From positions 1 through 46,046 of the IMG/VR virus record IMGVR_UViG_3300017780_005735: a DNA stretch of 46,046 nt; one strand, given 5' to 3'. Shown in pieces: positions 16,993 through 42,455 of the stretch (within the stretch, counting starts at the first letter, position 1; each line of letters starts with the position of its first letter). The notes beneath the pieces were generated by a model that saw only the letters and a list, made by a program, of their open reading frames with translations, had not been told where the DNA came from and did no database searches. The translations under genes and the position numbers were made by a program. This DNA comes from a virus. Taxonomy: Duplodnaviria; Caudoviricetes.

Positions 16993-17486
16993 AGCTTACC
17001 TTCGACATACAGCGCTACGCGCCGGAAAACCTCTGGGTCGGTGCAATTGTTCTTCAACATATTGGCGGTGCGTGAAACCACCCTAATGTTCCCGGGCACA
17101 TACCCTTTAGCGGGGTCAAACCTGTCTATCGACGGGGCGTGAGGGTGATTTTCGCCGAAAACAAAAGGGGTGCCCAAGACGGGGCACACGTCGGGAACTT
17201 TGATGTCGTATTTCGACAAACGAAACTCAATACCCTCAGACTTGGCGCGCCACTTGACCTGCTTGCAGATGTGCGCAGGCCACCCAGTTCGCGAGTTTCT
17301 TTGCGCCTTGCCAACTTCGCGGGCTCTGGCGAGTAGCTTGTCTTTGTTTTCGCTATAGGTTTTTTGGGCGTAGCCTACAAACTTCTCTTTGTTTGTCGCG
17401 TAGTAGTTGCGCATGTAGGCCCGGCGCTTATCGCGCACGGCCGTCTGCTGCATAGTGAGTGTAGCGCCGAACACTAACTCATCCAC
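16989..17486 (-). CDS. HNH homing-type endonuclease between terL and portal
   Basis: CPVLG...PSIDRFDPAKGYVPGNIRVVSRTANMLK; lower GC than neighbours. Confidence 0.8.
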   Translation of the reverse strand: MDELVFGATLTMQQTAVRDKRRAYMRNYYATNKEKFVGYAQKTYSENKDKLLARAREVGKAQRNSRTGWPAHICKQVKWRAKSEGIEFRLSKYDIKVPDVCPVLGTPFVFGENHPHAPSIDRFDPAKGYVPGNIRVVSRTANMLKNNCTDPEVFRRVALYVEGKL

Positions 17487-19093
17487 CCCGTCGAGTGAGT
17501 ACCTGAGAACCCGTCGTAGCCGATTTCCGGCGGGCGATCAAGCAGGGCTTGTTCCATCTCGGATTTTCGCTCGGCATCCGGCGCGTAAACCGTGGAGGCG
17601 AACGTCAGCGCCAAGGCGTCGGCGAAGTCCGGCGATCGGACTTTCTTGGCTTTCAAATCACTCTTACTCGCCAAAAGCAAGTTATTGTTTGTTTCAGGCT
17701 TGGCCTTCACCGCAGTCAAGTCGGCCTGCAGCGCGTCGTCGTCGGGAATTTGGGGCGGCTCATCCTGGTTCTCGAGCCAGTTTTTCATCCGCTGCCACAT
17801 TTCGGCCCGGCGGTTCACCGGGCCGGCGCGTTTCTTGTTGGCCATCTTGGCCTGACTGGTCGCGCCGAAGTTCACGGAGTGCACGACCGCGTCGTATTTC
17901 GGTCCTCGGTTCCGCAAGAAGGCGATAAGCGGGGCGCCGAGGCCGCCGCTGTCGATGAAAACCGCCGCCGGCTTGTAGGTGTCGATCTCCTCCTGCATCC
18001 ATTCGACCGCCTCGACGTAACCGACGTTACGCGCCTTGATCTGGACGCATTTCGACCCGATTCGGTGCGCGATCGTGAACCTGTCGCCATCCGGGCCGGC
18101 AGGGTCAACGCCGAGAATCAGCGGGCCAGCCGTCTCGACCTTGCGTTTCCGGGCCATCATGACCGGCTTGGCCGGGATGAACGACCCCTTGTTGGCGCTC
18201 TGGAACGCCTCGGCCGCGGTGGCCGGGTATTCCTGCTTGAAGCTGTCGAGGCCCTCGTCGAGAACCTTGTTCCGGCGCCACGCCATCTGCTCGAGGTCGC
18301 AGCCATAGGCCGAAGCGTACTCAGCCTCGGTCAGCTCGTCATTGTCGGGGTCCAGCCCCTGTGCCGGCGACGTCGTCGACAGCACAAAATCCGCCTCGAC
18401 AGGGCGGCGATACTCCGCCTGCCAGAACCACGGGATGAACACGCCCTCATAGTCGCCGATTCCGGCCTCGGCGTTCTGCCAGCGACGGTAAAACTCGCCG
18501 TCAACGCCGTTGGCGGTCGACTCGAGGATGACCCAGGTGCCGGGCAGTAGGGCGATGGAGTTGACGGACGCCTTGAAGTGGCCAGGCGCGTTCTCCCAGA
18601 ACGCCACTTCCGACCCGTGAAAGAACTGGCGCGTACCGCCGCGGCCGACTTCCTTCGACCCGGCCGTCTGGACCTCGTAGGAGCTGTTGAGCCGCGCGAA
18701 CGACAGCTCGCGGGCGTTGGAAGCGCCGGTTTTTGGCGCAGCCGGGTTGTTTTTGTGGTAGGTTTCCGTGATGGCGAAGATGTTTTCGGACGTGTCGCCA
18801 TGGTGCGACAGCACGAACGCGCTCTGGTTCTGCCAGAGGGACGTCTTGTGGTAGGCGCGGGCCTGCGACCACGTCGAAATGCCCTGCTGACGGCCTTTCA
18901 GGACCACGAATCGGACATAGCCCTTGCGCCTGAGCATGTCCTCGGCGCGCGCGTTGATATACTGCTGCGCCGTGTTCATCACGAACGGGACGAGGTGGCC
19001 GCCCTTGTCGACGATTTTCAGGCATGTGCGCGCGAAGAAATCAAAGTCGTCACGCATTTTCTTCGCGACGGCGATCTGCTCGGGAGAAACCAC
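17474..19093 (-). CDS. terL: Terminase large subunit
   Basis: KGRQQGIST (Walker A), FFHGSEVAFW (Walker B), ESTANG, GVDPA and SPDFADALA nuclease motifs. Confidence 0.93.
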   Translation of the reverse strand: MVSPEQIAVAKKMRDDFDFFARTCLKIVDKGGHLVPFVMNTAQQYINARAEDMLRRKGYVRFVVLKGRQQGISTWSQARAYHKTSLWQNQSAFVLSHHGDTSENIFAITETYHKNNPAAPKTGASNARELSFARLNSSYEVQTAGSKEVGRGGTRQFFHGSEVAFWENAPGHFKASVNSIALLPGTWVILESTANGVDGEFYRRWQNAEAGIGDYEGVFIPWFWQAEYRRPVEADFVLSTTSPAQGLDPDNDELTEAEYASAYGCDLEQMAWRRNKVLDEGLDSFKQEYPATAAEAFQSANKGSFIPAKPVMMARKRKVETAGPLILGVDPAGPDGDRFTIAHRIGSKCVQIKARNVGYVEAVEWMQEEIDTYKPAAVFIDSGGLGAPLIAFLRNRGPKYDAVVHSVNFGATSQAKMANKKRAGPVNRRAEMWQRMKNWLENQDEPPQIPDDDALQADLTAVKAKPETNNNLLLASKSDLKAKKVRSPDFADALALTFASTVYAPDAERKSEMEQALLDRPPEIGYDGFSGTHSTGWMS

Positions 19094-19180
19094 GGTCAGG
19101 AGCCCTCAAACGCAGCGGAGGAGGACACCGCGCGAGGGCTCCCTACACCGTACAGCGGACCAGCGACTGTGCCCGGCATA

Positions 19181-19570
19181 TCACCCTTGCCCGTCCTCGT
19201 CGGTCTCGTCAAGCGACCCTACGACAATTCCGCCAGCAAAGGCGTCGAAGCTCGAAAAATCCTGCGTCACCGCCGGCGCCGGGTTGTCGACGACCGTGAA
19301 GTCGCCGTCGATCGCCGCCAACACGTCCTCAATGGACCGCTGGTCGTTGATCTCGACGTCCTTCTGGATCGTCTTGGTGAAGATTTTCGTGTAGAAATCG
19401 GCCTCGTTCTGTGCGGATTTCTTGGCCCACTCCTTGAGCCCGTTGGCCCCGCCCATCATGTTGAACACCGTCAGCACAGCGTTCTTCGCGTACTTGCCGG
19501 CGTGCGCCATCACCGCGCCGTCGCTTCCGACGGCCGGGACGTACATGGGAGGGACGATCATCTCGCTCAT
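19181..19570 (-). CDS. Putative terminase small subunit
   Basis: Directly upstream of terL; VFNMMGGANGLKEWAK..FY..FTK helical core; ATGA-coupled start. Confidence 0.55.
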   Translation of the reverse strand: MSEMIVPPMYVPAVGSDGAVMAHAGKYAKNAVLTVFNMMGGANGLKEWAKKSAQNEADFYTKIFTKTIQKDVEINDQRSIEDVLAAIDGDFTVVDNPAPAVTQDFSSFDAFAGGIVVGSLDETDEDGQG

Positions 19571-19896
19571 GGCTCGAGTGTATACTTCGGCCTGTTGTTC
19601 CGCAACCACATGTAGAGGGCCTGGTAGCTGAGCCCCAGCCGCTTGGCGGCAATCTTGGTCCCCAGCCTGTCGCTCAGGTACAGCCGGCGGTTCCGCTCTT
19701 TCAGCGGCAGCATCCGCTTCATGTCGTTGGGCTGCGCCAGCCGCGCGCGAAGCGCCTCCTGCTTATGCCGCTTGAGGAAATGCCACAGCGTGGACGGCAG
19801 CATGTCGAGCTCGTGCGCGGCGTCCTGCAGATAGCCGCCCTGATCTGCGACGCGCTTGCACACGGTGATCCGGGCCTTCACCTGCCCTAGCGACAT
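19567..19896 (-). CDS. Tandem HTH DNA-binding protein
   Basis: DAAHELDMLPSTLWHFL and AAKRLGLSYQALYMWL. Confidence 0.65.
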   Translation of the reverse strand: MSLGQVKARITVCKRVADQGGYLQDAAHELDMLPSTLWHFLKRHKQEALRARLAQPNDMKRMLPLKERNRRLYLSDRLGTKIAAKRLGLSYQALYMWLRNNRPKYTLEP

Positions 19897-20043
19897 GGCG
19901 CTGGCAGGACGGGTAGTCCCAGGTCTCGTACTCGTCGGTGTCTCGGTCGTCATGGTCGGGGTGATAGCCTATGTCCTTGTCGTCGGGCGCCTCAGACCCG
20001 CCGTCTGGGTCAAACGGGTCGTCGAACGGCGAGGCGTCCTCGA

Positions 20044-20148
20044 CTAGGGACGCCCGCGGTATCTCAGGATGAGCGCGATTCCGATGCATACCAGAACATA
20101 CGCCCCGAGGCTGGCAAGCGCAACGACCCCGACCATTTCCGGCTCCAT
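20044..20148 (-). CDS. 34-aa single-TM peptide
   Basis: TGATG-coupled start; MEPEMVGVVALASLGAYVLVCIGIALILRYRGRP. Confidence 0.45.
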   Translation of the reverse strand: MEPEMVGVVALASLGAYVLVCIGIALILRYRGRP

Positions 20149-20438
20149 CAATGCACCGTGAAAAGTGTGAACTTGCCGTCAGCGTCCTGCTCGGCAATCC
20201 CCGGCAGTATGCGGCTTTTCCACCCTGTCACAAGGTGAACCTGGTGAATCTCGTCGGCCCCCTGCCGGCGCGTGGCAAAGCCGTTGGCGTACCAGTCGCG
20301 GAACCGCAGGTCGTAATCCTCGTCCTCGGGGTCAAACGGGACCAGTCGCTCGAGCTCGACGCTGTACTGCGCCTGCACGACGTAGCCCGGAATCGTGTTC
20401 GGCTTCGGCGCCGGTGGCGGCACGGTCAGCGTGAACAT
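20148..20438 (-). CDS. Hypothetical protein
   Basis: ATG overlaps the groES stop. Confidence 0.55.
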   Translation of the reverse strand: MFTLTVPPPAPKPNTIPGYVVQAQYSVELERLVPFDPEDEDYDLRFRDWYANGFATRRQGADEIHQVHLVTGWKSRILPGIAEQDADGKFTLFTVH

Positions 20439-20821
20439 CAGCCCTGCTCGATCCAGAGGATGTCGTTCTCGCGCATCATCAGCAGCTCCTCGAGCCCCTT
20501 GCCGATGTCCACTTTCACAACGTTCTCGTTGTGCGCCCACTTGCCGAACCGCACGCGGTCGCCGGCCTTCACCTCGGTTTTCACGAAGATACCGTTGACG
20601 TGGGTGCCTGGCCCGATGGCCACAACCTCGCCCAGACAGGACTTCTCGGCCGCGCCGTCGGGGATGATGATGTTGCCCACCTTCACAGCCTCGGCGCGCA
20701 CCAGCGCATAGTCGTGCAGCATCCGCTTGGGCTTGGCCTTCGGCTCAACCTTCGTGGTCTTGCCAGACCTCATGCCGTCGAACTCAAACTCGTCGAGAGG
20801 TTCTCGGTACGTGGCCATCAC
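20438..20821 (-). CDS. groES: GroES/Cpn10-like co-chaperonin with N-terminal extension
   Basis: LHDYALVR..GNIIIPD.A.EK...GEVVAIGPG...VKAGDRVRFGKW...LLMMRENDIL. Confidence 0.9.
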   Translation of the reverse strand: MMATYREPLDEFEFDGMRSGKTTKVEPKAKPKRMLHDYALVRAEAVKVGNIIIPDGAAEKSCLGEVVAIGPGTHVNGIFVKTEVKAGDRVRFGKWAHNENVVKVDIGKGLEELLMMRENDILWIEQG

Positions 20822-21012
20822 GGCTCCTTCGACAGGTCGTGGAACAACTGGATCGACACCTGAACACCCATCACGCGGGCGATCTCGGTGAGCATGGCGA
20901 CCTTCGAAGCCGGCGAGAAATCCTTGCTGGCCGAGTACGCGTCGACGCCCTTGTGGGTCGTGTAGCGCAGGACGTGGTCCGCGTCCGGTACGGTTTTCGC
21001 CGTGACGATCAT
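20818..21012 (-). CDS. Hypothetical protein
   Basis: ATG with GAGGAGG SD. Confidence 0.5.
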   Translation of the reverse strand: MIVTAKTVPDADHVLRYTTHKGVDAYSASKDFSPASKVAMLTEIARVMGVQVSIQLFHDLSKEP

Positions 21013-21031
21013 TCCGCCCTCCTCAGAGCGT

Positions 21032-21214
21032 TCAGCGTTTCTTGAGGTACTGCTCGCTGCGTTTCCGCGCAGCCTCAACCGCGGCCATCATCTTCGGGTC
21101 CTTGCTCGGACCCTTCGTCACCGGATCGACCTTCACGCCAGGCGGCTTTGGCGGCTTGGCCCGCGTCGGGACCTTGCTGTCGATCTTGTCCGAGAGGATG
21201 TTGAAAAACGGCAT
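21032..21214 (-). CDS. Small basic hypothetical protein (first gene of the leftward operon)
   Basis: 60-aa Lys/Pro-rich ORF. Confidence 0.5.
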   Translation of the reverse strand: MPFFNILSDKIDSKVPTRAKPPKPPGVKVDPVTKGPSKDPKMMAAVEAARKRSEQYLKKR

Positions 21215-21320
21215 CTGCGAAATCCATTGCCCCGGGCGCTTAGCTCGCTGAGCCAGAGACGCTACCGGGGCTTACCGCAGCTTCGTCGCATGGCTCGCGT
21301 GGCGGGTCAAGCGGGAATTT

Positions 21321-21427
21321 TGGAGGCGGGGCAGGATTCGAACCTGCGGTCTCCGGTGTGCGCCTTTTCAGGTTCCAGAGATACCCACTGCCGTCGGGCG
21401 ACCTCAACCACTCGGTCCACCCGCCTC
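21321..21427 (-). ncRNA. tRNA-like RNA with atypical anticodon arm and 35-nt extra arm
   Basis: Acceptor (G)AGGCGGG/CCCGCCT(C); D-arm GACC-GAGTGGTTGA-GGTC; T-arm GCAGG-TTCGAAT-CCTGC; ends in CCA. Confidence 0.75.
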
Positions 21428-21490
21428 TCAGGGTCTTGGTCGCATAGTCGCGCGAAAAAATCCAGAAAATTTTACTGGCTAAGTTACGGA

Positions 21491-21838
21491 TGTAACATGG
21501 CTTGCAAGGGTCTGGGAAATCTCAGGAATTCGGTGTCGGGGTGATACCGCCCCCTTCCCGCCCCAACCACGAACCACCGCCCCCGGGGTCCGAGCCGGGC
21601 GTTAACCCTAACGCGGGGTTAGCTATGCGGCCTTGGCCCCTTGGCCCCTGTGCCAGCCTGGCACACTGAGCTGGCATGGGGTTTGGCCCCTGTGTAACAT
21701 GGTGTGCAAGGTGACTATGTAACATGGCTTGCATGGGGTGGGAGCGGGCTGGGTTGCGGGGTGAGGGGCGCCCTTTGGCACAGTGGGCAAGGTGTGTGTA
21801 ATACACCTTACAAATCTAGACTGCCTCGTGTTACATGG
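21491..21838. promoter_or_regulatory. Divergent non-coding control region with TGTAACATGG repeats, palindromes and G/C-run tracts (candidate packaging/origin region)
   Basis: TGTAACATGG at 21491, 21693 and 21718; TGTTACATGG at 21829; TTGGCCCCT three times; strand switch point. Confidence 0.55.
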
Positions 21839-21954
21839 TCCAGAGCGATGTAAGACAATAGAAATAATAACCGTTACGTTTCATCCTTCTGCACCAAGTT
21901 TTTTTGAGGGTCCAACTCTTGCAATATCTGTTAATCGATAAATAGGAGCCTGTT

Positions 21955-22137: not shown

Positions 22138-22224
22138 AGCGACATAGCGGCGAATTATCTTCCCGCGTTATTGCCTGCGTAACACTTCTCGCATAGTATC
22201 TTACATAACAAGGGAGCTAGATCA

Positions 22225-30467: not shown

Positions 30468-30949
30468 TGCTACCCCTTCGTTTCTTCGTTCAAGAATCCA
30501 TGGCGATCGAGAACATCAACGACCCCGTGTCGCTGCTGAACGACATCGCGCAGCACGACAAGTGGCTCAAACTCGAGAACCTCACGGTCGAGGAGATCAG
30601 TGGCTTCTCCCGCGCCATCGACCCCAAGGCCGATTTCATCAAGTCGCCGCAGCACACCGAGCAGCTCAAGGCGATGCTCGAGAACGCCATGGTCGGCGCC
30701 GCTGCGATCAAGCGCGAGGAGACGGAGACCCGCAAGCCGCAGCCTGAGCGTCGTGCGTGGCTGGCCTACGTCACACACCGCGCCTTCCACGAGATCGCAC
30801 CGTTCGTGGTGTCGCCGATGAACGGTATCGTGAGCCGTGCAATCTGGCTGTGGATCATGGGCGGCAAGATCGACAGCCTGTTCTCTCACGCATGGTACAG
30901 ACACACGCTCCGCTACGGCGGGACGCCGGAGATCAAGGAGAAGAAATGA
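30467..30949 (+). CDS. Degenerate Fic/Doc-like protein
   Basis: FVQESMAIENI and HRAFHEIAPFVVSPMNGIVSRAIW compared with canonical H..F..IHPF.DGNGR..R. Confidence 0.55.
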   Translation: MLPLRFFVQESMAIENINDPVSLLNDIAQHDKWLKLENLTVEEISGFSRAIDPKADFIKSPQHTEQLKAMLENAMVGAAAIKREETETRKPQPERRAWLAYVTHRAFHEIAPFVVSPMNGIVSRAIWLWIMGGKIDSLFSHAWYRHTLRYGGTPEIKEKK

Positions 30950-31329
30950 CGGACGTTCGCGAATACGCAGCCATCAAAGGCATCACGACCGAGGAGGCCG
31001 CCCGCGAGCTGGGCGAGCAGTACCAGACGGAGCCTGCTGGCTTCGGCCACAACTCCGGTATGCAGGTTGCCAGCCCCGACGCCTCGGCGCTCACCAAGGC
31101 CGCCAAGGAAAAGCTGCGCCACATCGTCGCCAAGGTGAACGCCCTCGACGAGGAGCGCAAGGAAGTCGCCGGCCAGATCAAGGACGTCTACGCCGAAGCC
31201 AAGTCGATGGGCTACGACACGAAGGCGCTCCGCAAGGTCATCCGCGAGATGAACATGGACCGCCAGGAGCGCGAGGAGATGGAGGCGATCATGGACGTCT
31301 ACCGGATCGCGCTGGAAATGAAGGACTGA
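30946..31329 (+). CDS. gapR: GapR/DUF2312 family DNA-binding protein
   Basis: GHNS..LRHIVAKVNALDEERKEVAGQIKDVYAEAKSMGYDTKALRKVIR..ERE..EAIMDVYRIAL. Confidence 0.88.
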   Translation: MTDVREYAAIKGITTEEAARELGEQYQTEPAGFGHNSGMQVASPDASALTKAAKEKLRHIVAKVNALDEERKEVAGQIKDVYAEAKSMGYDTKALRKVIREMNMDRQEREEMEAIMDVYRIALEMKD

Positions 31330-31801: not shown

Positions 31802-33705
31802 TCGTTCTGGATTGGGAAACGCTACCCATTGAGCAACGCCCGGCATATCCGCCCAAGCCCGTGGGTCTGGCAGTCTTGGGCGCTCAGCACATCCCCGGCG
31901 GACCGTGGTGTGACGGCTATTACGCCTTTGGCCACCCCTCTGGTAACAATTGCTTAGTCGAGGATGTCCGCGCGCTGTTGACATCTCTGTGGGTCGAGGC
32001 CGCCGCCGGCCGTGTAGAGATTCTGGGCTTCAACTCAAAATTCGATATGTCCGTCTGCTACGAGGGGCTCGGCCTCCCGACCCTTCCGTGGTGGGCCGTG
32101 CATGACGCGATGTACCTCGCCTTCCTCGCCAATCCACACGCCAAGAACCTCGACCTCAAGAGCCTTGCGGAGAACCTTTTCAACTGGCCGCCAGAGCAGC
32201 GCGACGCCATCAACGACTGGGTCGTCGAGAATGTGGAGGAGCTGCGCAAACAGTACGCCCCTGAGAAGATCACGATCACGAAGGGCAAGGTCGCGAATCT
32301 GTGGCGCTGGTATGCCCGCGTGGATGGCCAGCTGGCCGGCTCCTACGCCAACGGCGACACGGCGCGCACGAAGGCCCTGTTCGATCACCTGTATCCAAAG
32401 ATCGTCCAGAGCGGGATGCTCGAGGCGTACAACCGACTCCGCCAGATCACGCCCATCTTCATGGAAAACGAGCGCCTGGGGATGCGCGTCGACCTCGAGC
32501 TGCTGAAGCAGGACGTGCAGAAGTACAGCGCCGCCTTGAGCAAGGTCGAGGCAGCGATCCGCCAGTATCTGCGTGCGCCCGACCTGAACCTCGACGCCGA
32601 CATCGACATGGCCAATGCGCTGGACGCAGTGGGCGCCGTGACGCAGTGGGTCCTGACCGAGAGCGGCGAGAAGTCCGTCAGCAAGGTCAACCTCAAACCC
32701 CACCACTTCCGTGACCCGGAACTCGCCAGCGCGCTCGGCTACCGCAACCGCCTAGTGACGGCGCTGAACACGTTCATGATACCGTGGCTCGAGCAGGCCC
32801 AGAAAACCGGCGGCACGATCCACACCAACTGGAACATCACCCGCGGCGACGCCGGCGGCACGCGCACCGGCCGGCCGTCGACGTCGAACCACAACTTCCT
32901 GAACCTCGCCAAAGATTTCGAGACGAAGAAAGACGGCTATGTCCATCCTGACTTTCTTGACCTCCCCGCGCTACCTCTTGTCCGCCGCTATGTCCTGCCT
33001 GATGCTGGCCATGTTTTTCTTCACCGTGATTTCAGCGGCCAAGAGCTGCGCGTGTTTGCTCACTTCGAAGCCGGAGAGCTCAACGCCGCCTACAACGAAA
33101 ACCCGAACCTGGACCCTCATGACGAGTGGGTCCGCCCTCTCATGGAGCGAGCGTCCGGCAAGACCTACGACCGCACCAAAATCAAGACGCTGAACTTCCA
33201 AGGTATCTACGGCGGCGGCGCGCCGGCCCTGGCGAAGGCGCTCGAGATAACAGTGCAGGAAGCCAAGGCGCTCAAGGTCGAGCACGACAAGGCGCTCCCG
33301 GGCCGCAAGCTGGTCGCCGACACCATCACCGCCATCTTCAAGCGCGGCGACGCGATCCGCACCTGGGGTGGGCGCCTCTACTATTGCGAGCCGGCCGGGC
33401 ATTCGAAGAAACACGGCAAGTGGATGTCCTATGAGTACAAGGGCATCAACTACGAGGTGCAGGGCTCCGCCGCCGACCTGACGCTCGAGTCGATCATCGA
33501 CTGGTACAACGACCCCGAGCGCGATCCGCGCACGCGCCTTCTGGTCACGGTCTACGACGAGATCAACATCTCCTGCCCGCCGGAGATCGAGGCACAGCAG
33601 ATGCAGGTGCTCAAGCGGAACATGGAGAAGCAGCGCCTGTCTGTCCCGATGCTGAGCGACGGGAAGCGCGGTCTGAGCTGGGGAGCGTTGGAGAAATGCG
33701 CCTAG
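31789..33705 (+). CDS. Family A DNA polymerase with 3'-5' exonuclease
   Basis: DWET, FNSKFD, YANGD; TRTGRPS; motif A DFSGQELRV, motif B KTLNFQGIYG, QGSAAD, motif C VYDE. Confidence 0.93.
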   Translation: MPHIVVLDWETLPIEQRPAYPPKPVGLAVLGAQHIPGGPWCDGYYAFGHPSGNNCLVEDVRALLTSLWVEAAAGRVEILGFNSKFDMSVCYEGLGLPTLPWWAVHDAMYLAFLANPHAKNLDLKSLAENLFNWPPEQRDAINDWVVENVEELRKQYAPEKITITKGKVANLWRWYARVDGQLAGSYANGDTARTKALFDHLYPKIVQSGMLEAYNRLRQITPIFMENERLGMRVDLELLKQDVQKYSAALSKVEAAIRQYLRAPDLNLDADIDMANALDAVGAVTQWVLTESGEKSVSKVNLKPHHFRDPELASALGYRNRLVTALNTFMIPWLEQAQKTGGTIHTNWNITRGDAGGTRTGRPSTSNHNFLNLAKDFETKKDGYVHPDFLDLPALPLVRRYVLPDAGHVFLHRDFSGQELRVFAHFEAGELNAAYNENPNLDPHDEWVRPLMERASGKTYDRTKIKTLNFQGIYGGGAPALAKALEITVQEAKALKVEHDKALPGRKLVADTITAIFKRGDAIRTWGGRLYYCEPAGHSKKHGKWMSYEYKGINYEVQGSAADLTLESIIDWYNDPERDPRTRLLVTVYDEINISCPPEIEAQQMQVLKRNMEKQRLSVPMLSDGKRGLSWGALEKCA

Positions 33706-34580
33706 CCGCGTACTATAACGAGCATGACGAGTTCGCCGCACAGTGGCTGCGCAACCTGATCGCCGCGGGCCACATTGCGCCTGGCGACGTAGACGAGAGA
33801 GACCTGTGGGATGTCAGACCCGATGACCTTGTCGGCTACAGCCAAGTTCACTTCTGCGCCGGAATCGGCATCTGGTCCCTTGCGCTACGAGCCGGGGGTT
33901 GGTGTGATTCACGTCCCGTCTGGACAGGTAGTTTCCCGTGCCAGCCTTTCAGCGCGGCAGGCAAGAGACTTGGGGCTGCTGACGAGCGGCACCTGTGGCC
34001 GGCGGGATACCATCTCATCAGCGTCTGCCGTCCTGACGTTGTCCTTGGCGAGCAGGTTGCAAGCCCTGACGGCCTCGGTTGGCTCGAGGGTCTACAGGCT
34101 GACATGGAAGCTGCGGGCTATGCCGTCGGGGCGGTCGATACCTGCGCTGCGGGCTTTGCGGATCAAGCCACCGGCGAGGAAGGCTTCCACATCAGACAGC
34201 GCCTCTACTGGGGTGCTAAAAGGCTTGGCAACGCCGACGACGCGCGATCACAAGGATGGCGGATCGGCGGGAACGGCGCCGGTCAACGGCCTGCTGGGCC
34301 GGCAGGTGTGGCTCATGGGCTGGGCGACGCCCAAGGCGAGCGACGCAGATGGCGGCCGGACGACGGAAACCAAGGGTGGCGGCAACGTGCACCTGGACAA
34401 GCAGGCGCGGCGGATTGGCTCCGAAACTCCGATGGAGACTGGCAACCAGTTGAACCCGGAACATTCCCGCTGGCTCATGCGAATCCCGCCAGAGTGGGCC
34501 TCATCCGCGCCTACGGAAACGCCCTCGACGCTGCGCAAGCGACGGGCTTCGTAACCGCCTGGATGGAGTGCGCGCCGTGA
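33696..34580 (+). CDS. C5 cytosine DNA methyltransferase, alpha-type polypeptide lacking motif IX
   Basis: HFCAGIG (I), FPCQPFS (IV), EQV (VI), HIRQRLYW (VIII), RAYGNAL (X). Confidence 0.85.
   Translation: MRLAAYYNEHDEFAAQWLRNLIAAGHIAPGDVDERDLWDVRPDDLVGYSQVHFCAGIGIWSLALRAGGWCDSRPVWTGSFPCQPFSAAGKRLGAADERHLWPAGYHLISVCRPDVVLGEQVASPDGLGWLEGLQADMEAAGYAVGAVDTCAAGFADQATGEEGFHIRQRLYWGAKRLGNADDARSQGWRIGGNGAGQRPAGPAGVAHGLGDAQGERRRWRPDDGNQGWRQRAPGQAGAADWLRNSDGDWQPVEPGTFPLAHANPARVGLIRAYGNALDAAQATGFVTAWMECAP
33811..34554 (+). CDS. Nested +1-frame beta-type MTase polypeptide with target-recognition-like and motif IX-like segments (true start uncertain)
   Basis: ATPTTRDHKDG, GWATPKASD and LNPEHSRWLMRIPPEW; same layout as M.EcoHK31I. 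Confidence 0.7.
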   Translation: MSDPMTLSATAKFTSAPESASGPLRYEPGVGVIHVPSGQVVSRASLSARQARDLGLLTSGTCGRRDTISSASAVLTLSLASRLQALTASVGSRVYRLTWKLRAMPSGRSIPALRALRIKPPARKASTSDSASTGVLKGLATPTTRDHKDGGSAGTAPVNGLLGRQVWLMGWATPKASDADGGRTTETKGGGNVHLDKQARRIGSETPMETGNQLNPEHSRWLMRIPPEWASSAPTETPSTLRKRRAS

Positions 34581-39200: not shown

Positions 39201-39425
39201 CTACCACGGGCGCCCCTCTACCCTCGCTTGCCAGCCGTCGGCCTGCTGCTCCAACGCAGATTTCAAAGCTGGGTGGACAAAGAGGGTGTCGCCGAGGCGC
39301 AGTGCTAGTGGCTTCAGCTTGACGCGTCCGCGGATGCCTTTCTTGAGTCTACGTATCGCGCGGCTTGGAGACCGGCACCCGGAAGTGTCGATCTTGAGCG
39401 CCGTGTCTGTCACGATCACGCGCAT
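39201..39425 (-). CDS. Hypothetical protein (last gene of the leftward arm)
   Basis: TGATG coupling; RSPSRAIRRLKKG. Confidence 0.55.
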   Translation of the reverse strand: MRVIVTDTALKIDTSGCRSPSRAIRRLKKGIRGRVKLKPLALRLGDTLFVHPALKSALEQQADGWQARVEGRPW

Positions 39426-40063
39426 CAGAAAAACCGTTTCTCGATGTGGACCTGGAAGTCCCGGGCGGTCGGGAAGTCGTTGAAGATTTCCGCGTCGACG
39501 GAAAGCATGGTCACGAGAGCCTCAGACGAGTGCATCCCAGATACGACAGGCCCCGGATCACGCACCACGCGGAACACCTTGCCGCCCAGCGACTTGATCG
39601 CTTCCACCTCGTTCGGGAACCGCACGTCCGTCACGACGATCCCCGTGCCGTCGCGCATGGCCCGCGACGCGCGCCGCTTGAACGTGTCGATCCACAGGTC
39701 GGGGTGGATCAGGTCGCGGCCCCACTCCGTCCCCAGCGTCTGCATGGCGTGCCGCGCCGTCTTGCCCATGAGCAGGTCGGTGACGTGCTCCTTGCGGTCG
39801 CCGTCGGTGTACTGGGCCGGGTAGGTGCCCTTGGACCCGTCGAGCCGGAACTCGAGCAGCGTGCGCAGCATGGCCTTCAGCGGCTCGGCGAAGCTGAACT
39901 TCTGCCACGCGTGGTCGACGAACACTTGGCCGGCAGTGTCCTTGCCGGATCCGGCCAGGCCGGTGAATCCAATGAGACGGGGGTTCATAACTTCTCCTAC
40001 GGTTGGATACATCCGCTTCGCCTCGGCGAGGCCGATCCAGCGGATAGGTGCGAAAAGGCTCAC
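39425..40063 (-). CDS. Deoxynucleoside monophosphate kinase (alternative start ATG 39988 with AGGAG)
   Basis: IGFTGLAGSGKDT, FAEPLK, RHAMQTLGTEWGR, VTDVRFPNE, HSSE. Confidence 0.9.
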   Translation of the reverse strand: MSLFAPIRWIGLAEAKRMYPTVGEVMNPRLIGFTGLAGSGKDTAGQVFVDHAWQKFSFAEPLKAMLRTLLEFRLDGSKGTYPAQYTDGDRKEHVTDLLMGKTARHAMQTLGTEWGRDLIHPDLWIDTFKRRASRAMRDGTGIVVTDVRFPNEVEAIKSLGGKVFRVVRDPGPVVSGMHSSEALVTMLSVDAEIFNDFPTARDFQVHIEKRFF

Positions 40064-40668
40064 GGTTTAACTTGGTCGAACATGTCGAGGAACCGCCGCC
40101 GGGCCTGGGCGGGCTGCACAGCGTAGCGGTCGATGATGTCCTCGGCACCGGTGTAGGGCGGGAAGTCACGCATAAACTGACCCCACTCCTCCTCGGTCGT
40201 CACTGGCCCGAGCAGTGCCAGCTTCTCCGTCGTGCAGATACGTCCATCGGCGTCCTTCACGAACGGGTGCATTTCGACAGGCACGTCGAACTTCTTGGCG
40301 ATCACTTCCCACAGCCGCTTCTCAGCGGCGCGGTACTCGGGGAACGCCCGCTTGATCGGCGACGGCATGTCGATCAGATAAGCCTCGGTGGCGTCGTGCA
40401 GGAGAGCTTGGCGAATTATCTCGCGCTCCGCCCACGCCGGGTACAGCGTCTCAGTAGCCAGCCGCGTCGCCACAATTCGCGCCACATACACGCTGTGTTC
40501 GGCGACGCTGTAGTGCCGCGACGTGTAGCCGCTGAACCTGCAGGTGTGCGCCAGCGCGTGGGCGATGTCGCCGATTCTGAGGTCGTCGGGGTCCATGTTC
40601 AGCGGGTCGGCGAAATGCCCGTTGAGCGTCTCGATCTTGCTGCTAAGCGTTCTATGCGTGTACAACAT
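40060..40668 (-). CDS. HD-domain 5'-deoxynucleotidase (YfbR/YfdR-like)
   Basis: DIAHALAHTCRFSG..YSVAEHS..ALLHDATEAYLIDMPSPIK. Confidence 0.88.
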   Translation of the reverse strand: MLYTHRTLSSKIETLNGHFADPLNMDPDDLRIGDIAHALAHTCRFSGYTSRHYSVAEHSVYVARIVATRLATETLYPAWAEREIIRQALLHDATEAYLIDMPSPIKRAFPEYRAAEKRLWEVIAKKFDVPVEMHPFVKDADGRICTTEKLALLGPVTTEEEWGQFMRDFPPYTGAEDIIDRYAVQPAQARRRFLDMFDQVKP

Positions 40669-42455
40669 CAGGCCCTCCACCGGCCATTGAACCAAGTCAC
40701 CATCTGGCGCTTCCCGTTCGGGTGCACCACGCAATCAGTATGCGTCCATGAGGATGGGGCTCCCCGAGCATACTCCATGTCGAGCCGGGCGGACACTCCA
40801 ACCTGATAGGCCCCGTTGAAGATACCGGCGGAGTGCGAGTGTCCAATGACGAGCTTCCGCCCAATTCTTGCCAGGTTCCTGATAGAGCCCCGCGCTCCTC
40901 CGGGGCCTTGATCGCCGTGCAGGCCGAGCTCAACACCGCCGCTGCGATCGCGGCACACCACGTAGCTTTCACCTGGCTCAAGGAACTTCACCTTTTTCAC
41001 CGGGCCATTCGTCGTGACGGCCCACTTCAGCGCATGAAATGAGGACCCTGCACGGATCGCGCCAAGGAAAGCCTTCTGGCAGTCGAGGTAGAACTCGGCG
41101 TTCACCGGGTCGCTGCGCCAGTCGGCTTCCTTCAACCACCGCTCGAGATGCCGGTCGTGGTTCGAATCGGCCACGATGACGCGCGAGTGCTGTGTCATTA
41201 TGGTCAGCAGGCGCGAGACGCCCATCACCTCGTCGAGCACGTCCTCCCGTTTCTGGACGTGCAAGGCGAACATCTTGTGCGGGTCGCGTCGGTTGTGGTG
41301 GCTCCTGCTTTCGAAGTCGAGGATGTCGTGCGCCACCTGCAGGTCCGGGCACAGGACTTCCACGAAGCCGCCAGGCCCCCACTTCGCGCCGACCATCTGC
41401 GGGTCGAGCTGGCGCTCATGCAGGTCGCCGTGGACGATCGCTGTCGCGCCGATGGACGGAGCCACCGTGCCGTCCGTCATGACGCACACGTCGAGGTCGT
41501 AGAGCCGGCCCTTGCTGTCGACGTGGAGCTGGCGAGCCCACCAGTTGCCGTCAGAGTTCACCTCGACGATCATGCCGCCATAGACGTGGTCGAACTCAGC
41601 CTTCTGGCCCGCTTTCTTCTGGATGTAGTTCAGCTGCGTGCAGGCGCCGGTCGTGTACTGCAGCTTCGCGTTGCTGTCCGTCATTGTGGGAATGGACGCC
41701 ATCGCCACCTTGGCGTGCGGAAAAATGGAGCTTGCCCGGCCGTTATAGTTCGCCATGCCCGACAGCGGATCGACCGCTGTGGGCAGGATGTTCATGTGTC
41801 CATTGAAGACGAGGGATGGCGCCAGTGCAACCATCTCGTCGCACGCAAACTCCTCGATTCTGGGGTCATACCAATCCGTGCCGGTGTCACCCTTAGCAGA
41901 ACCGCGCTTTGCGCTGCCTTCTTGTCGGTGGGAGTAGGAGAAGGTGGATACAAGGAGAGATGCTCCGTAATATCCGGCGAGGGCGCGGATGGCGTTCCAA
42001 GTTGGTTCATGGAGCTTTGTCCCAGATTGAGCACAGGTGACGATGTAGCGTGCAATTTCCTCGCCCTTCGGCAGAGGCATCTTGCGGGCCTTGAGCGCAG
42101 CGACCGCGCCTTTAGGCTTCCAGTCGGAGCGCCGGACGGCTTCCCGCAGGCGGTTCTGGACCGTAGCCCTGTTGATACCCAGGGCAAGGGCTGCGGCGCT
42201 CTGAGAGCCGTGCACCTCGACGGCTCGTACGGTCTCCGCAATCTGGTCGGCAGACAGCCCCTGCGCGCCGGAGTGCACAAGCGAGTCAGGCACGACCTCG
42301 TCGGGAAGGCGGCGTTTGATCTGAACGATGCGGTCGCGGAGAGTTCTGTCGTGTATGCCGAGCTCTGACGCTACCTTGGCGCGGTGTCCGTTATGCTTGC
42401 GTAGGGCCTTAGCTGTCCTCTTCAGGACGGCCGTCGGCATGGACTTTCCCACCAC
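40668..42455 (-). CDS. T5 A1-like calcineurin-type metallophosphoesterase/nuclease with two N-terminal HTHs
   Basis: GDLH, HDILD, SNHD, HGD, GHSH; TTGACTQLNYIQKKAGQKAEFDH recalled as A1-like. Confidence 0.7.
   Translation of the reverse strand: MVGKSMPTAVLKRTAKALRKHNGHRAKVASELGIHDRTLRDRIVQIKRRLPDEVVPDSLVHSGAQGLSADQIAETVRAVEVHGSQSAAALALGINRATVQNRLREAVRRSDWKPKGAVAALKARKMPLPKGEEIARYIVTCAQSGTKLHEPTWNAIRALAGYYGASLLVSTFSYSHRQEGSAKRGSAKGDTGTDWYDPRIEEFACDEMVALAPSLVFNGHMNILPTAVDPLSGMANYNGRASSIFPHAKVAMASIPTMTDSNAKLQYTTGACTQLNYIQKKAGQKAEFDHVYGGMIVEVNSDGNWWARQLHVDSKGRLYDLDVCVMTDGTVAPSIGATAIVHGDLHERQLDPQMVGAKWGPGGFVEVLCPDLQVAHDILDFESRSHHNRRDPHKMFALHVQKREDVLDEVMGVSRLLTIMTQHSRVIVADSNHDRHLERWLKEADWRSDPVNAEFYLDCQKAFLGAIRAGSSFHALKWAVTTNGPVKKVKFLEPGESYVVCRDRSGGVELGLHGDQGPGGARGSIRNLARIGRKLVIGHSHSAGIFNGAYQVGVSARLDMEYARGAPSSWTHTDCVVHPNGKRQMVTWFNGRWRA

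Follow-up and report, generated by a model that had tools for sequence, protein, structure and literature searches.

The window analysed here covers a virus record of 46,046 nt that is complete and carries direct terminal repeats. Its gene content is that of a phage: the head genes are P22-like, and it encodes a DNA polymerase of family A, a primase and a helicase. No integrase was found among the family matches of the window ORFs, and no synthetase, tRNA-dependent transferase, ligase or Ro60 among the scanned ORFs, many of which match no family. The leftward late block opens with a 107-nt tRNA-shaped RNA gene (referred to here as the element; Table 1). It precedes the first late ORF, which encodes 60 aa, by 107 nt, and no terminator-like site lies between them. 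GapR is typical of alphaproteobacteria, and the GapR-like gene hints at an alphaproteobacterial host. The GroES-like gene has one close homolog (70%) in the protein collection, recovered without its genomic context.

Table 1. The tRNA-shaped element, its parts and its surroundings in the 46,046-nt window
Feature	Coordinates	Strand	Support or remark
tRNA-shaped RNA gene with class II body and long extra arm, without canonical anticodon loop	21321..21427	-	fold, chance scan, covariance model
Acceptor helix, 5' strand: G-1 (21427) and positions 1-7 (21426-21420)	21420..21427	-	sequence, pair probabilities
U8-G9 linker plus one extra G, 4-pair D stem, Ser-type D loop (G15, G18-G19)	21400..21419	-	
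17-nt hairpin where the anticodon arm would be: bulged stem capped by a GGCA tetraloop or by a 7-nt loop lacking U33; predicted non-decoding	21383..21399	-	
35-nt extra arm: 7-bp helix, 2x6 internal loop, 3-bp helix, GAAA tetraloop, C47/C48	21348..21382	-	
T arm: 5 bp, canonical T loop	21331..21347	-	sole such arm in the window
Acceptor 3' strand (21330-21324), C73 (21323, pairs with G-1), then C and A	21321..21330	-	
Sigma-70-like promoter match (9/12), ~40 nt upstream of the element	21469..21496	-	chance level: 1 found, 0.6 expected
Segment apparently skipped by one related-phage contig: element and ~25-nt leader	21322..21452	-	loose end in run X2
Co-oriented late genes downstream of the element	17474..21214	-	
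60-aa ORF	21214-21032	-	
64-aa ORF	21012-20818	-	
GroES-like gene, phage co-chaperonin with N-terminal extension	20821-20438	-	
Three ORFs between the GroES-like gene and the large terminase			one likely small terminase, by position only
Large terminase	19093-17474	-	element 2.2 kb upstream
GapR-like DNA-binding domain (PF10073)	30757-31329	+	

The gap between the early and late blocks carries three 21-nt direct repeats with a near-palindromic core (21490-21510, 21692-21712 and 21717-21737), one of which overlaps the promoter-like site, and partial copies are present at 21828, 21848-21855 and 22198-22206. The same core is borne by a loose end at 21678 in the public run X2, which contains contigs of related phages; the repeats are possibly regulator sites or a genome end. 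A GC-rich hairpin (21229-21271) lies just ahead of the 60-aa ORF, and a related-phage contig of run X2 has 21 other letters in place of 21214-21280. Elsewhere in the genome, an HD-domain dNMP phosphatase adjoins a dNMP kinase, and a cytosine methyltransferase-like gene is present (39425-40734 on the minus strand and 33696-34580 on the plus strand); these genes may serve nucleotide-pool control or DNA modification.

Folding of positions 21321-21427 (minus strand) predicted a class II (Ser/Leu-type) cloverleaf. The sequence and the coordinates given by the initial annotation were reproduced exactly, and the acceptor, D and T arms that it had described as intact agreed with the predicted fold and with the pair probabilities: 0.98-1.0 for the eight acceptor pairs, 0.85 for the four D-stem pairs and 0.97-0.98 for the T stem, with 0.76-0.95 for the extra-arm helices. 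The acceptor, D and T stems contain no mismatch, and the changes are confined to the anticodon and extra arms. C48, at the end of the extra arm, can pair with G15, and the D loop is of the same type as that of a bacterial Ser-type tRNA (L281). The acceptor had been read either as 7 bp followed by CCA or as 8 bp. The 8-bp reading held, its eighth pair being G-1:C73, the signature of bacterial tRNA-His; the encoded CCA is offset by one base from the tRNA register. A Cys-like register (6-bp acceptor, U73 and CCA) was set aside because pairing runs two more pairs at 0.98-1.0.

At the anticodon position, a bulged stem with a GGCA tetraloop (A34-U41, 0.54; C35-G40, 0.81) was favoured over a 7-nt loop (G33-U41, 0.31), and U33 is absent from both alternative folds, as had been noticed. 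The spacer base described as missing is in fact there: C26 takes this role in the Ser-type numbering, and the extra base falls in the acceptor-D linker. Since the canonical anticodon loop is absent, the element is predicted not to decode. This is in keeping with the earlier suggestion that it is probably not a decoding tRNA, as is the absence of a G3-U70 pair to go with the nominal GGC anticodon. The 35-nt extra arm was reproduced as well, and the element measures 103 nt from position 1 to position 72, where 35 ordinary class II tRNAs of phages measure 79-92 nt.

A T arm, a 7/7 acceptor, U8 and the D-loop motif are found together at a single place in the window, and none of 1674 simulated order-2 Markov genomes has such a site (0/1674). 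A covariance model trained without the element recovered it with 59.1 bits (E ~6e-16) as the sole match in the window. Taken by itself, the fold energy is only slightly better than that of shuffles (z -1.7). Note that the centroid fold of the 249-nt leader loses the acceptor helix, so folding within the precursor is not assured. No antisense match of at least 12 nt was found between the element and the remaining genome. Positions 21274-21285 are complementary at 11 of 12 nt to the T arm, which may be chance.

ARAGORN made no call in the whole window at default settings; with the threshold at 80% an unassigned call appeared at the element, among 83 mostly spurious ones. The Rfam scan of the whole window gave no match at the element and no family at threshold, and on the local stretch tRNA-Sec (RF01852) reached 19.8 bits against a cut-off of 47. 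Neither program thus returned an ordinary tRNA or a known family, outcomes that the initial annotation had named as a refutation. From the canonical tRNA (RF00005), the element has the 7-bp acceptor, the D arm with G18-G19 and the T arm with its canonical loop, and the test for a canonical anticodon arm (5-bp stem, 7-nt loop, U33, purine 37) failed on the missing U33 and the favoured tetraloop. It resembles tRNA-Sec in its 13-bp acceptor-T branch (8/5) and long extra arm, and is missing the UCA anticodon, the 6-bp D stem with tetraloop and G73. Instead of the 8/4 or 9/3 branch, Sec-like D arm and G73/U73 of allo-tRNAs and selC*, there is a 5-bp T stem, a Ser-type D loop and C73. Of the bacterial tRNA-His identity, the G-1:C73 pair is present, and the GUG anticodon and a CCA following C73 are both missing.

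Neither the permuted tRNA domain, the Ro60-binding stem, the neighbouring Ro60 gene nor the Rfam match of a YrlA was found. For tmRNA (G3-U70, stemless D loop, tag reading frame), the element has G3-C70, a D stem and no call. By eye only, no excision of an insert could be drawn that restores a canonical anticodon arm, as an intron-bearing tRNA would have. A resemblance between the extra arm and glycine riboswitch, SRP or kink-turn motifs was dropped, having no Rfam support. The build of the phage T5 RNA1 and RNA2, a phage-encoded cloverleaf with intact acceptor, D and T arms and a remodelled anticodon position, is the one that the element displays. Judged from its sequence, the element is a real tRNA mimic and likely a non-decoding one.

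Similar RNAs were collected from the viral collection with a pattern in which a Ser-type D loop and a T loop are separated by a long gap; it uses a single D-loop word. In 27 of the 64 parts of the collection this pattern found 119 stretches, with ~290 estimated overall, and an earlier pattern with a shifted CCA had found 18. The 123 matches (loci plus the window) were reduced to 60 distinct RNAs with at least 6/7 acceptor and at least 4/5 T-stem pairs. ARAGORN overlapped one of these 60 (L125), which was removed as a chance match, leaving 59 RNAs, the element included, in 44 lineages. A loose test for a canonical anticodon arm was passed by 8 of the 60. Taken together, the pattern scans yielded some 70 distinct RNAs built in this way in phages, nearly all of them missed by ARAGORN. 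The class is heterogeneous and possibly includes intron-bearing or odd decoding tRNAs (the L120 group, L127, L150, L212 and L384). Decayed copies are excluded by design, because the patterns fix the D and T loops and the filters demand paired stems.

At positions that the pattern does not demand, G9 and C48 are present in all of the 59 RNAs and a 3-bp D stem in 56 of them, while the middle region contains no k-mer or motif shared by the 59. The alignment comprised 37 members, with the element left out and the row of L347 miscut at its 5' end; 96.7% of its cells were paired, and two-sided changes were seen in 14 of 16 pairs. Since the pairing of the acceptor and T stem is partly built in by the filter and that of the D stem is not, note that 98% of the D-stem cells were paired and that each of the 3 pairs showed two-sided changes. 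Within sibling groups of the class, the extra-arm pairs are kept through two-sided changes, and so are the acceptor pairs. The anticodon arm is in many members a ~12-nt unpaired linker. The element itself shows two oddities that are absent from the class, the extra linker G and, in the model alignment, a D loop shorter by one base. The model made from the alignment gave ordinary Ser tRNAs 54-62 bits, level with the element, and thus its match demonstrates a class II body but does not set these RNAs apart as a family of their own. Covariation, proposed as a check among related phages, was obtained for the class, with no sibling of the element found to provide it for the element itself. The proposal of a tRNA mimic is supported at this class level. 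As read from the alignment, selection has acted on the elbow, the D stem and the acceptor helix of the class and has left the anticodon region and the discriminator free; because no sibling was found, these statements concern the class as a whole and do not extend to this copy.

Applied to prokaryotic genomes, this pattern gave 120 matches, of which 58 could be parsed and were mostly archaeal intron tRNAs, plus a handful of bacterial anticodon-free RNAs (for example L220, L242, L255, L334, L336 and L337). On this basis the build appears to be mainly viral. The class members occur in tRNA clusters, many of them among ordinary tRNA genes, or alone, or opposing their neighbours. With a rough ORF call, 12 of the 50 members with long flanks had a same-strand ORF start within 200 nt, and 9 of the 50 were opposite to both flanking long ORFs. 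As in our phage, L100, L103 and L108 are class RNAs upstream of terminase genes. Two class members queried against isolate phages gave no match.

As a reference for the 3' end, 234 distinct ordinary tRNAs were taken from the viral loci that had been retrieved for the class. A pyrimidine at position 73 was found in 22 of 59 class RNAs compared to 1 of 35 ordinary class II tRNAs, bearing in mind that the class members are not independent and that the element and L088 were chosen with C73. An encoded CCA was present in 3/59 class RNAs and 64/234 ordinary tRNAs, and at least two extra acceptor pairs in 13/59 and 8/234, respectively. Among the 228 ordinary non-His tRNAs, C73 was never found and G-1 was found in 9. 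A scan of the whole collection for C73 gave 48 matches, 16 of which failed the stem filter, and 23 distinct RNAs passed; 22 of these 23 have G-1 (12 of the 13 newly found ones), and one of the new C73 RNAs, L384, is called tRNA-Lys by ARAGORN. U73 is paired with A-1 in 8 of 11 class RNAs versus 3 of 33 ordinary tRNAs, and the acceptor helices reach 9-12 pairs (an extension of 2-5 in 10 of the 23 C73 members). Because U73 also pairs with A-1 and the helices extend to 9-12 pairs, the coupling of C73 with G-1 and of U73 with A-1 points to a longer closed helix, and not to histidine identity. The class can be described by a simple rule: a fixed elbow and acceptor helix, a free anticodon, a long paired extra arm and a relaxed discriminator. 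A host tRNA-His was not found in a Sphingomonadales genome with an L083-type RNA.

The closest described RNAs, by build rather than by any evident sequence homology, are T5 RNA1 and RNA2 (NC_005859, T5s03 and T5s06), annotated as 'tRNA-like stable RNA with unknown functions'. Like the element, they are phage-encoded, have intact acceptor, D and T arms, a remodelled anticodon position and an extra arm, and they lack a CCA in register. They differ in length (144 and 125 nt), in the expansion of the anticodon position to a long arm and in their location within a tRNA cluster, whereas the element combines a short arm at the anticodon position with a long extra arm and is a solitary gene. The class model gave RNA2 21.8 bits and did not find RNA1. 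T4 RnaC (species 1 RNA) and RnaD are late RNAs of the phage that are stable, have no known function and are encoded next to tRNA genes (PMC9697503). A T arm is present in RnaC, which reached 21.4 bits over part of its length, but no Ser-type D loop was seen in the annotated RnaC and its arms are laid out differently.

With class II tRNA-Ser/Leu, the element has in common the D-loop type, U8, G9, G15-C48, G18-G19, the T loop and a long variable arm, and it departs from them in the missing U33, C73 instead of G73/A73, its greater length and the CCA out of register. The G-1 'tRNA1' and allo-tRNAs of Mukai et al. (PMC5389517) likewise have a long extra arm, G-1 and a phage or mobile context. However, tRNA1, which is charged and unused in translation, has an anticodon loop and sits in polycistrons, and the allo-tRNAs have an 8/4 or 9/3 branch and a Sec-like D arm, compared to the 5-bp T stem and Ser-type D loop of the element. 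YrlA (PMC4201824) is another non-decoding mimic of the tRNA elbow that occurs in phages, but it is permuted, has a Ro60-binding stem and adjoins a Ro60 gene, none of which is seen at the element.

No description of this phage RNA class was found in the literature searched, most subscription papers lying outside the search. A survey of viral candidate RNAs reports 10,006 candidates, five of them tRNA-like through ARAGORN overlap, and may hold members of the class (PMC10690425). We conclude that the class is a widespread and poorly described group of phage RNAs, of which the element's copy is likely a non-decoding variant. Stable tRNA-like RNAs of unknown function have been annotated in T5 and T4 for decades, and the element leads to about 70 similar ones.

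Searches for a sibling of the element were negative. Blastn against isolate phages returned just T-arm matches to ordinary tRNAs, the exact D arm had 0 matches in viral contigs, a pattern of D arm plus T arm found in metagenome contigs the window's own contig (L216) alone, and a pattern with a short D loop gave three unrelated stretches. The terminase relatives amount to 77 loci with an identity of at most 49%; in these 77, the pattern scan found no RNA of the element's build upstream of the terminase gene, and neither did model R1 in 57 of them. Two odd tRNA-shaped RNAs with a class I-type D arm were seen in terminase-related phages, one of 109 nt with a long insert (L045, 5067-5175, plus strand) and one with a shrunken anticodon arm (L051, 4440-4514, plus strand). 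With the capsid as query, a single relative was recovered (74%, L340), and its contig stops short of the locus; the GroES-alignment query gave no relative, and no homolog of the 64-aa ORF was found. The best match to the middle region of the element is L194, at a marginal 0.31 versus a shuffled maximum of 0.298, and the L194 phage has no terminase match. Downstream of this class member, L194 contains another structured, repeated RNA-like sequence (400-677), which shares a short acceptor-like word with it.

The related phages in run X2 are mostly 80-95% alike, and their contigs leave the element without clear cover and with no tabulated joint across it. Another run, X1, may be where this DNA came from and does not count as independent. 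One contig matches 21281-21321, and positions 2-11 of its next letters correspond to window positions 21453-21462, a 10-mer unique in the genome. This would be a relative without a 131-nt cassette, with its boundary just ahead of the last A of the CCA, and the cassette would be accessory or dispensable; the reading is a weak hint, because it comes from one contig and a 30-letter excerpt.

Our preferred reading, which we hold tentatively, is that the element works in trans as a bait for a host protein that binds class II tRNAs, most plausibly a tRNA-targeting defence or toxin enzyme. The element would likely be transcribed with the late operon. Since RNase P reads the elbow and the acceptor helix (PMC11143913), host RNase P and 3' nucleases would likely cut the RNA out and leave a stable product, for which T5 RNA1 and RNA2, annotated as stable, would be an analogous precedent. 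The released RNA would then likely act in trans, which is favoured by the varied settings of the class members, some within tRNA clusters, some solitary and some on the strand opposite to the genes around them. The presumed target, a guess, would be a host protein that recognises class II tRNAs through the elbow and the long variable arm, with no need of the anticodon. A candidate target class exists, because the PtuAB of Septu and retron-Eco7 cleaves the variable loop of class II tRNA-Tyr, and an extra phage tRNA-Tyr weakens these systems (PMC13096335, PMC12673091). Note that altering the anticodon of a phage tRNA-Tyr abolished the rescue from retron-Eco7 (PMC11555353), so a non-decoding bait failed in that one tested case.

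The initial annotation had suggested a decoy for anticodon nucleases. Since the anticodon region is what changes freely or is lost within the class, this is unlikely, and a decoy for proteins reading the elbow or the variable arm fits better. We consider it doubtful, though conceivable, that unrecognised anticodon-free class II mimics exist across many phage hosts and soak up tRNA-cutting or -modifying defences with their elbow and oversized arm; if this were true, the element would be one member and the T5 orphan stable RNAs would be others. As bait for tRNA-targeting defences, these RNAs would represent an RNA-based counter-defence and would point to host enzymes that read the class II shape. 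If they are merely processing signals or relics, they are still relevant to annotation.

It is unlikely that the element is a relic, namely a Ser-type tRNA gene that has lost its anticodon and is drifting near neutrality, still folded since little time has passed. It is a singleton, it carries the two oddities untypical of the class, and ordinary phage tRNAs are usual upstream of terminase genes (L002, L010, L018, L051 and others); the related phage that may lack the element speaks weakly in the same sense. Drift would, however, have to explain changes restricted to the anticodon and extra arms beside mismatch-free acceptor, D and T stems, a 35-nt extra arm that is a new and well-paired structure, and the fact that 44 or more lineages, their tertiary-core bases fixed, have reached this end state. 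We give a low probability to a role in cis, in which the cloverleaf would direct cleavage by RNase P or form a structured cap at the 5' end and so govern the processing or stability of the late mRNA. A processing signal of the late transcript had been put forward earlier, and the location is suitable: the element begins ~40 nt past a promoter-like site and is followed by the first late ORF, no terminator-like site intervening, the parts read by RNase P (PMC11143913) are the conserved ones, and terminase genes are also found downstream of three other class RNAs (L100, L103 and L108). While this keeps the proposal possible for the element, the class fits it poorly, with the few same-strand ORFs and the members opposing both neighbours in the rough ORF call, and a cleavage signal has no need of a long paired extra arm.

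Also improbable, in our judgement, is an RNA that is charged and not translated: a cut by RNase P at -1 and the addition of CCA would permit loading by HisRS or SerRS, and the product would be a synthetase sink or a non-ribosomal aminoacyl donor. G-1:C73 is present in the element and in 22 of the 23 C73 members; PMC9976931 states that this pair is enough for histidylation of a minihelix and that arm size is the main Ser determinant, and PMC5389517 that G-1 'tRNA1' RNAs are His-charged in vitro with no translation. Minihelix histidylation and these charged, untranslated RNAs keep this explanation in consideration. The pairing of U73 with A-1 and the helices of 9-12 pairs suggest helix extension instead, the CCA is out of register, C73 abolishes leucylation, and the host that GapR hints at is alphaproteobacterial, some of whose HisRS ignore G-1/C73 (both points from PMC9976931); in addition, neither a synthetase nor a tRNA-dependent transferase was hit among the scanned ORFs. 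We regard as very improbable an unusual tRNA that decodes or mis-reads (allo-tRNA-like) GCC or another codon. This reading can point to a drawable 7-nt loop with a nominal GGC, to GCC as the Ala codon that the phage uses most (52-61 per 1000) and to long-armed allo-tRNAs with foreign anticodons, which do translate (PMC5389517), but the element has no U33, favours the tetraloop, carries G3-C70 in place of G3-U70, branches as 7/5 or 8/5 and not as 8/4 or 9/3, and stays far below the tRNA-Sec cut-off. Hardly credible, finally, is a packaging or DNA-level element (pRNA-like or att-like) tied to the terminase genes. The idea of a packaging RNA came from the proximity of the large terminase, 2.2 kb downstream, and the element also lies beside the repeat-bearing intergenic region; it is left unsupported by the spread of class members over many other contexts, by the terminase-related loci, of which 0/77 by scan and 0/57 by model R1 carry such a build upstream of the gene, and by a window with no integrase match.

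Some further RNAs were observed during the scans. Five have Ser-type bodies, long arms and intact foreign anticodon loops: L127 (2491-2589, minus strand; GUC), L267 (2989-3089, plus strand; GAA), L285 (2989-3093, plus strand; GCA), L320 (289-407, plus strand; CCA) and L212 (291-394, minus strand; CUA), and they are candidate mis-reading or suppressor tRNAs. An identical T-arm stretch with no acceptor partner nearby recurs in eight virus records (L079, L084, L087, L090-L093 and L096) and is possibly part of a larger RNA. Finally, L347, with its 8 identical copies and L393, is identical in nine virus records, several of them proviral. Genes for an HNH protein and a small terminase follow this type of RNA, which would be a tractable model given a host strain.
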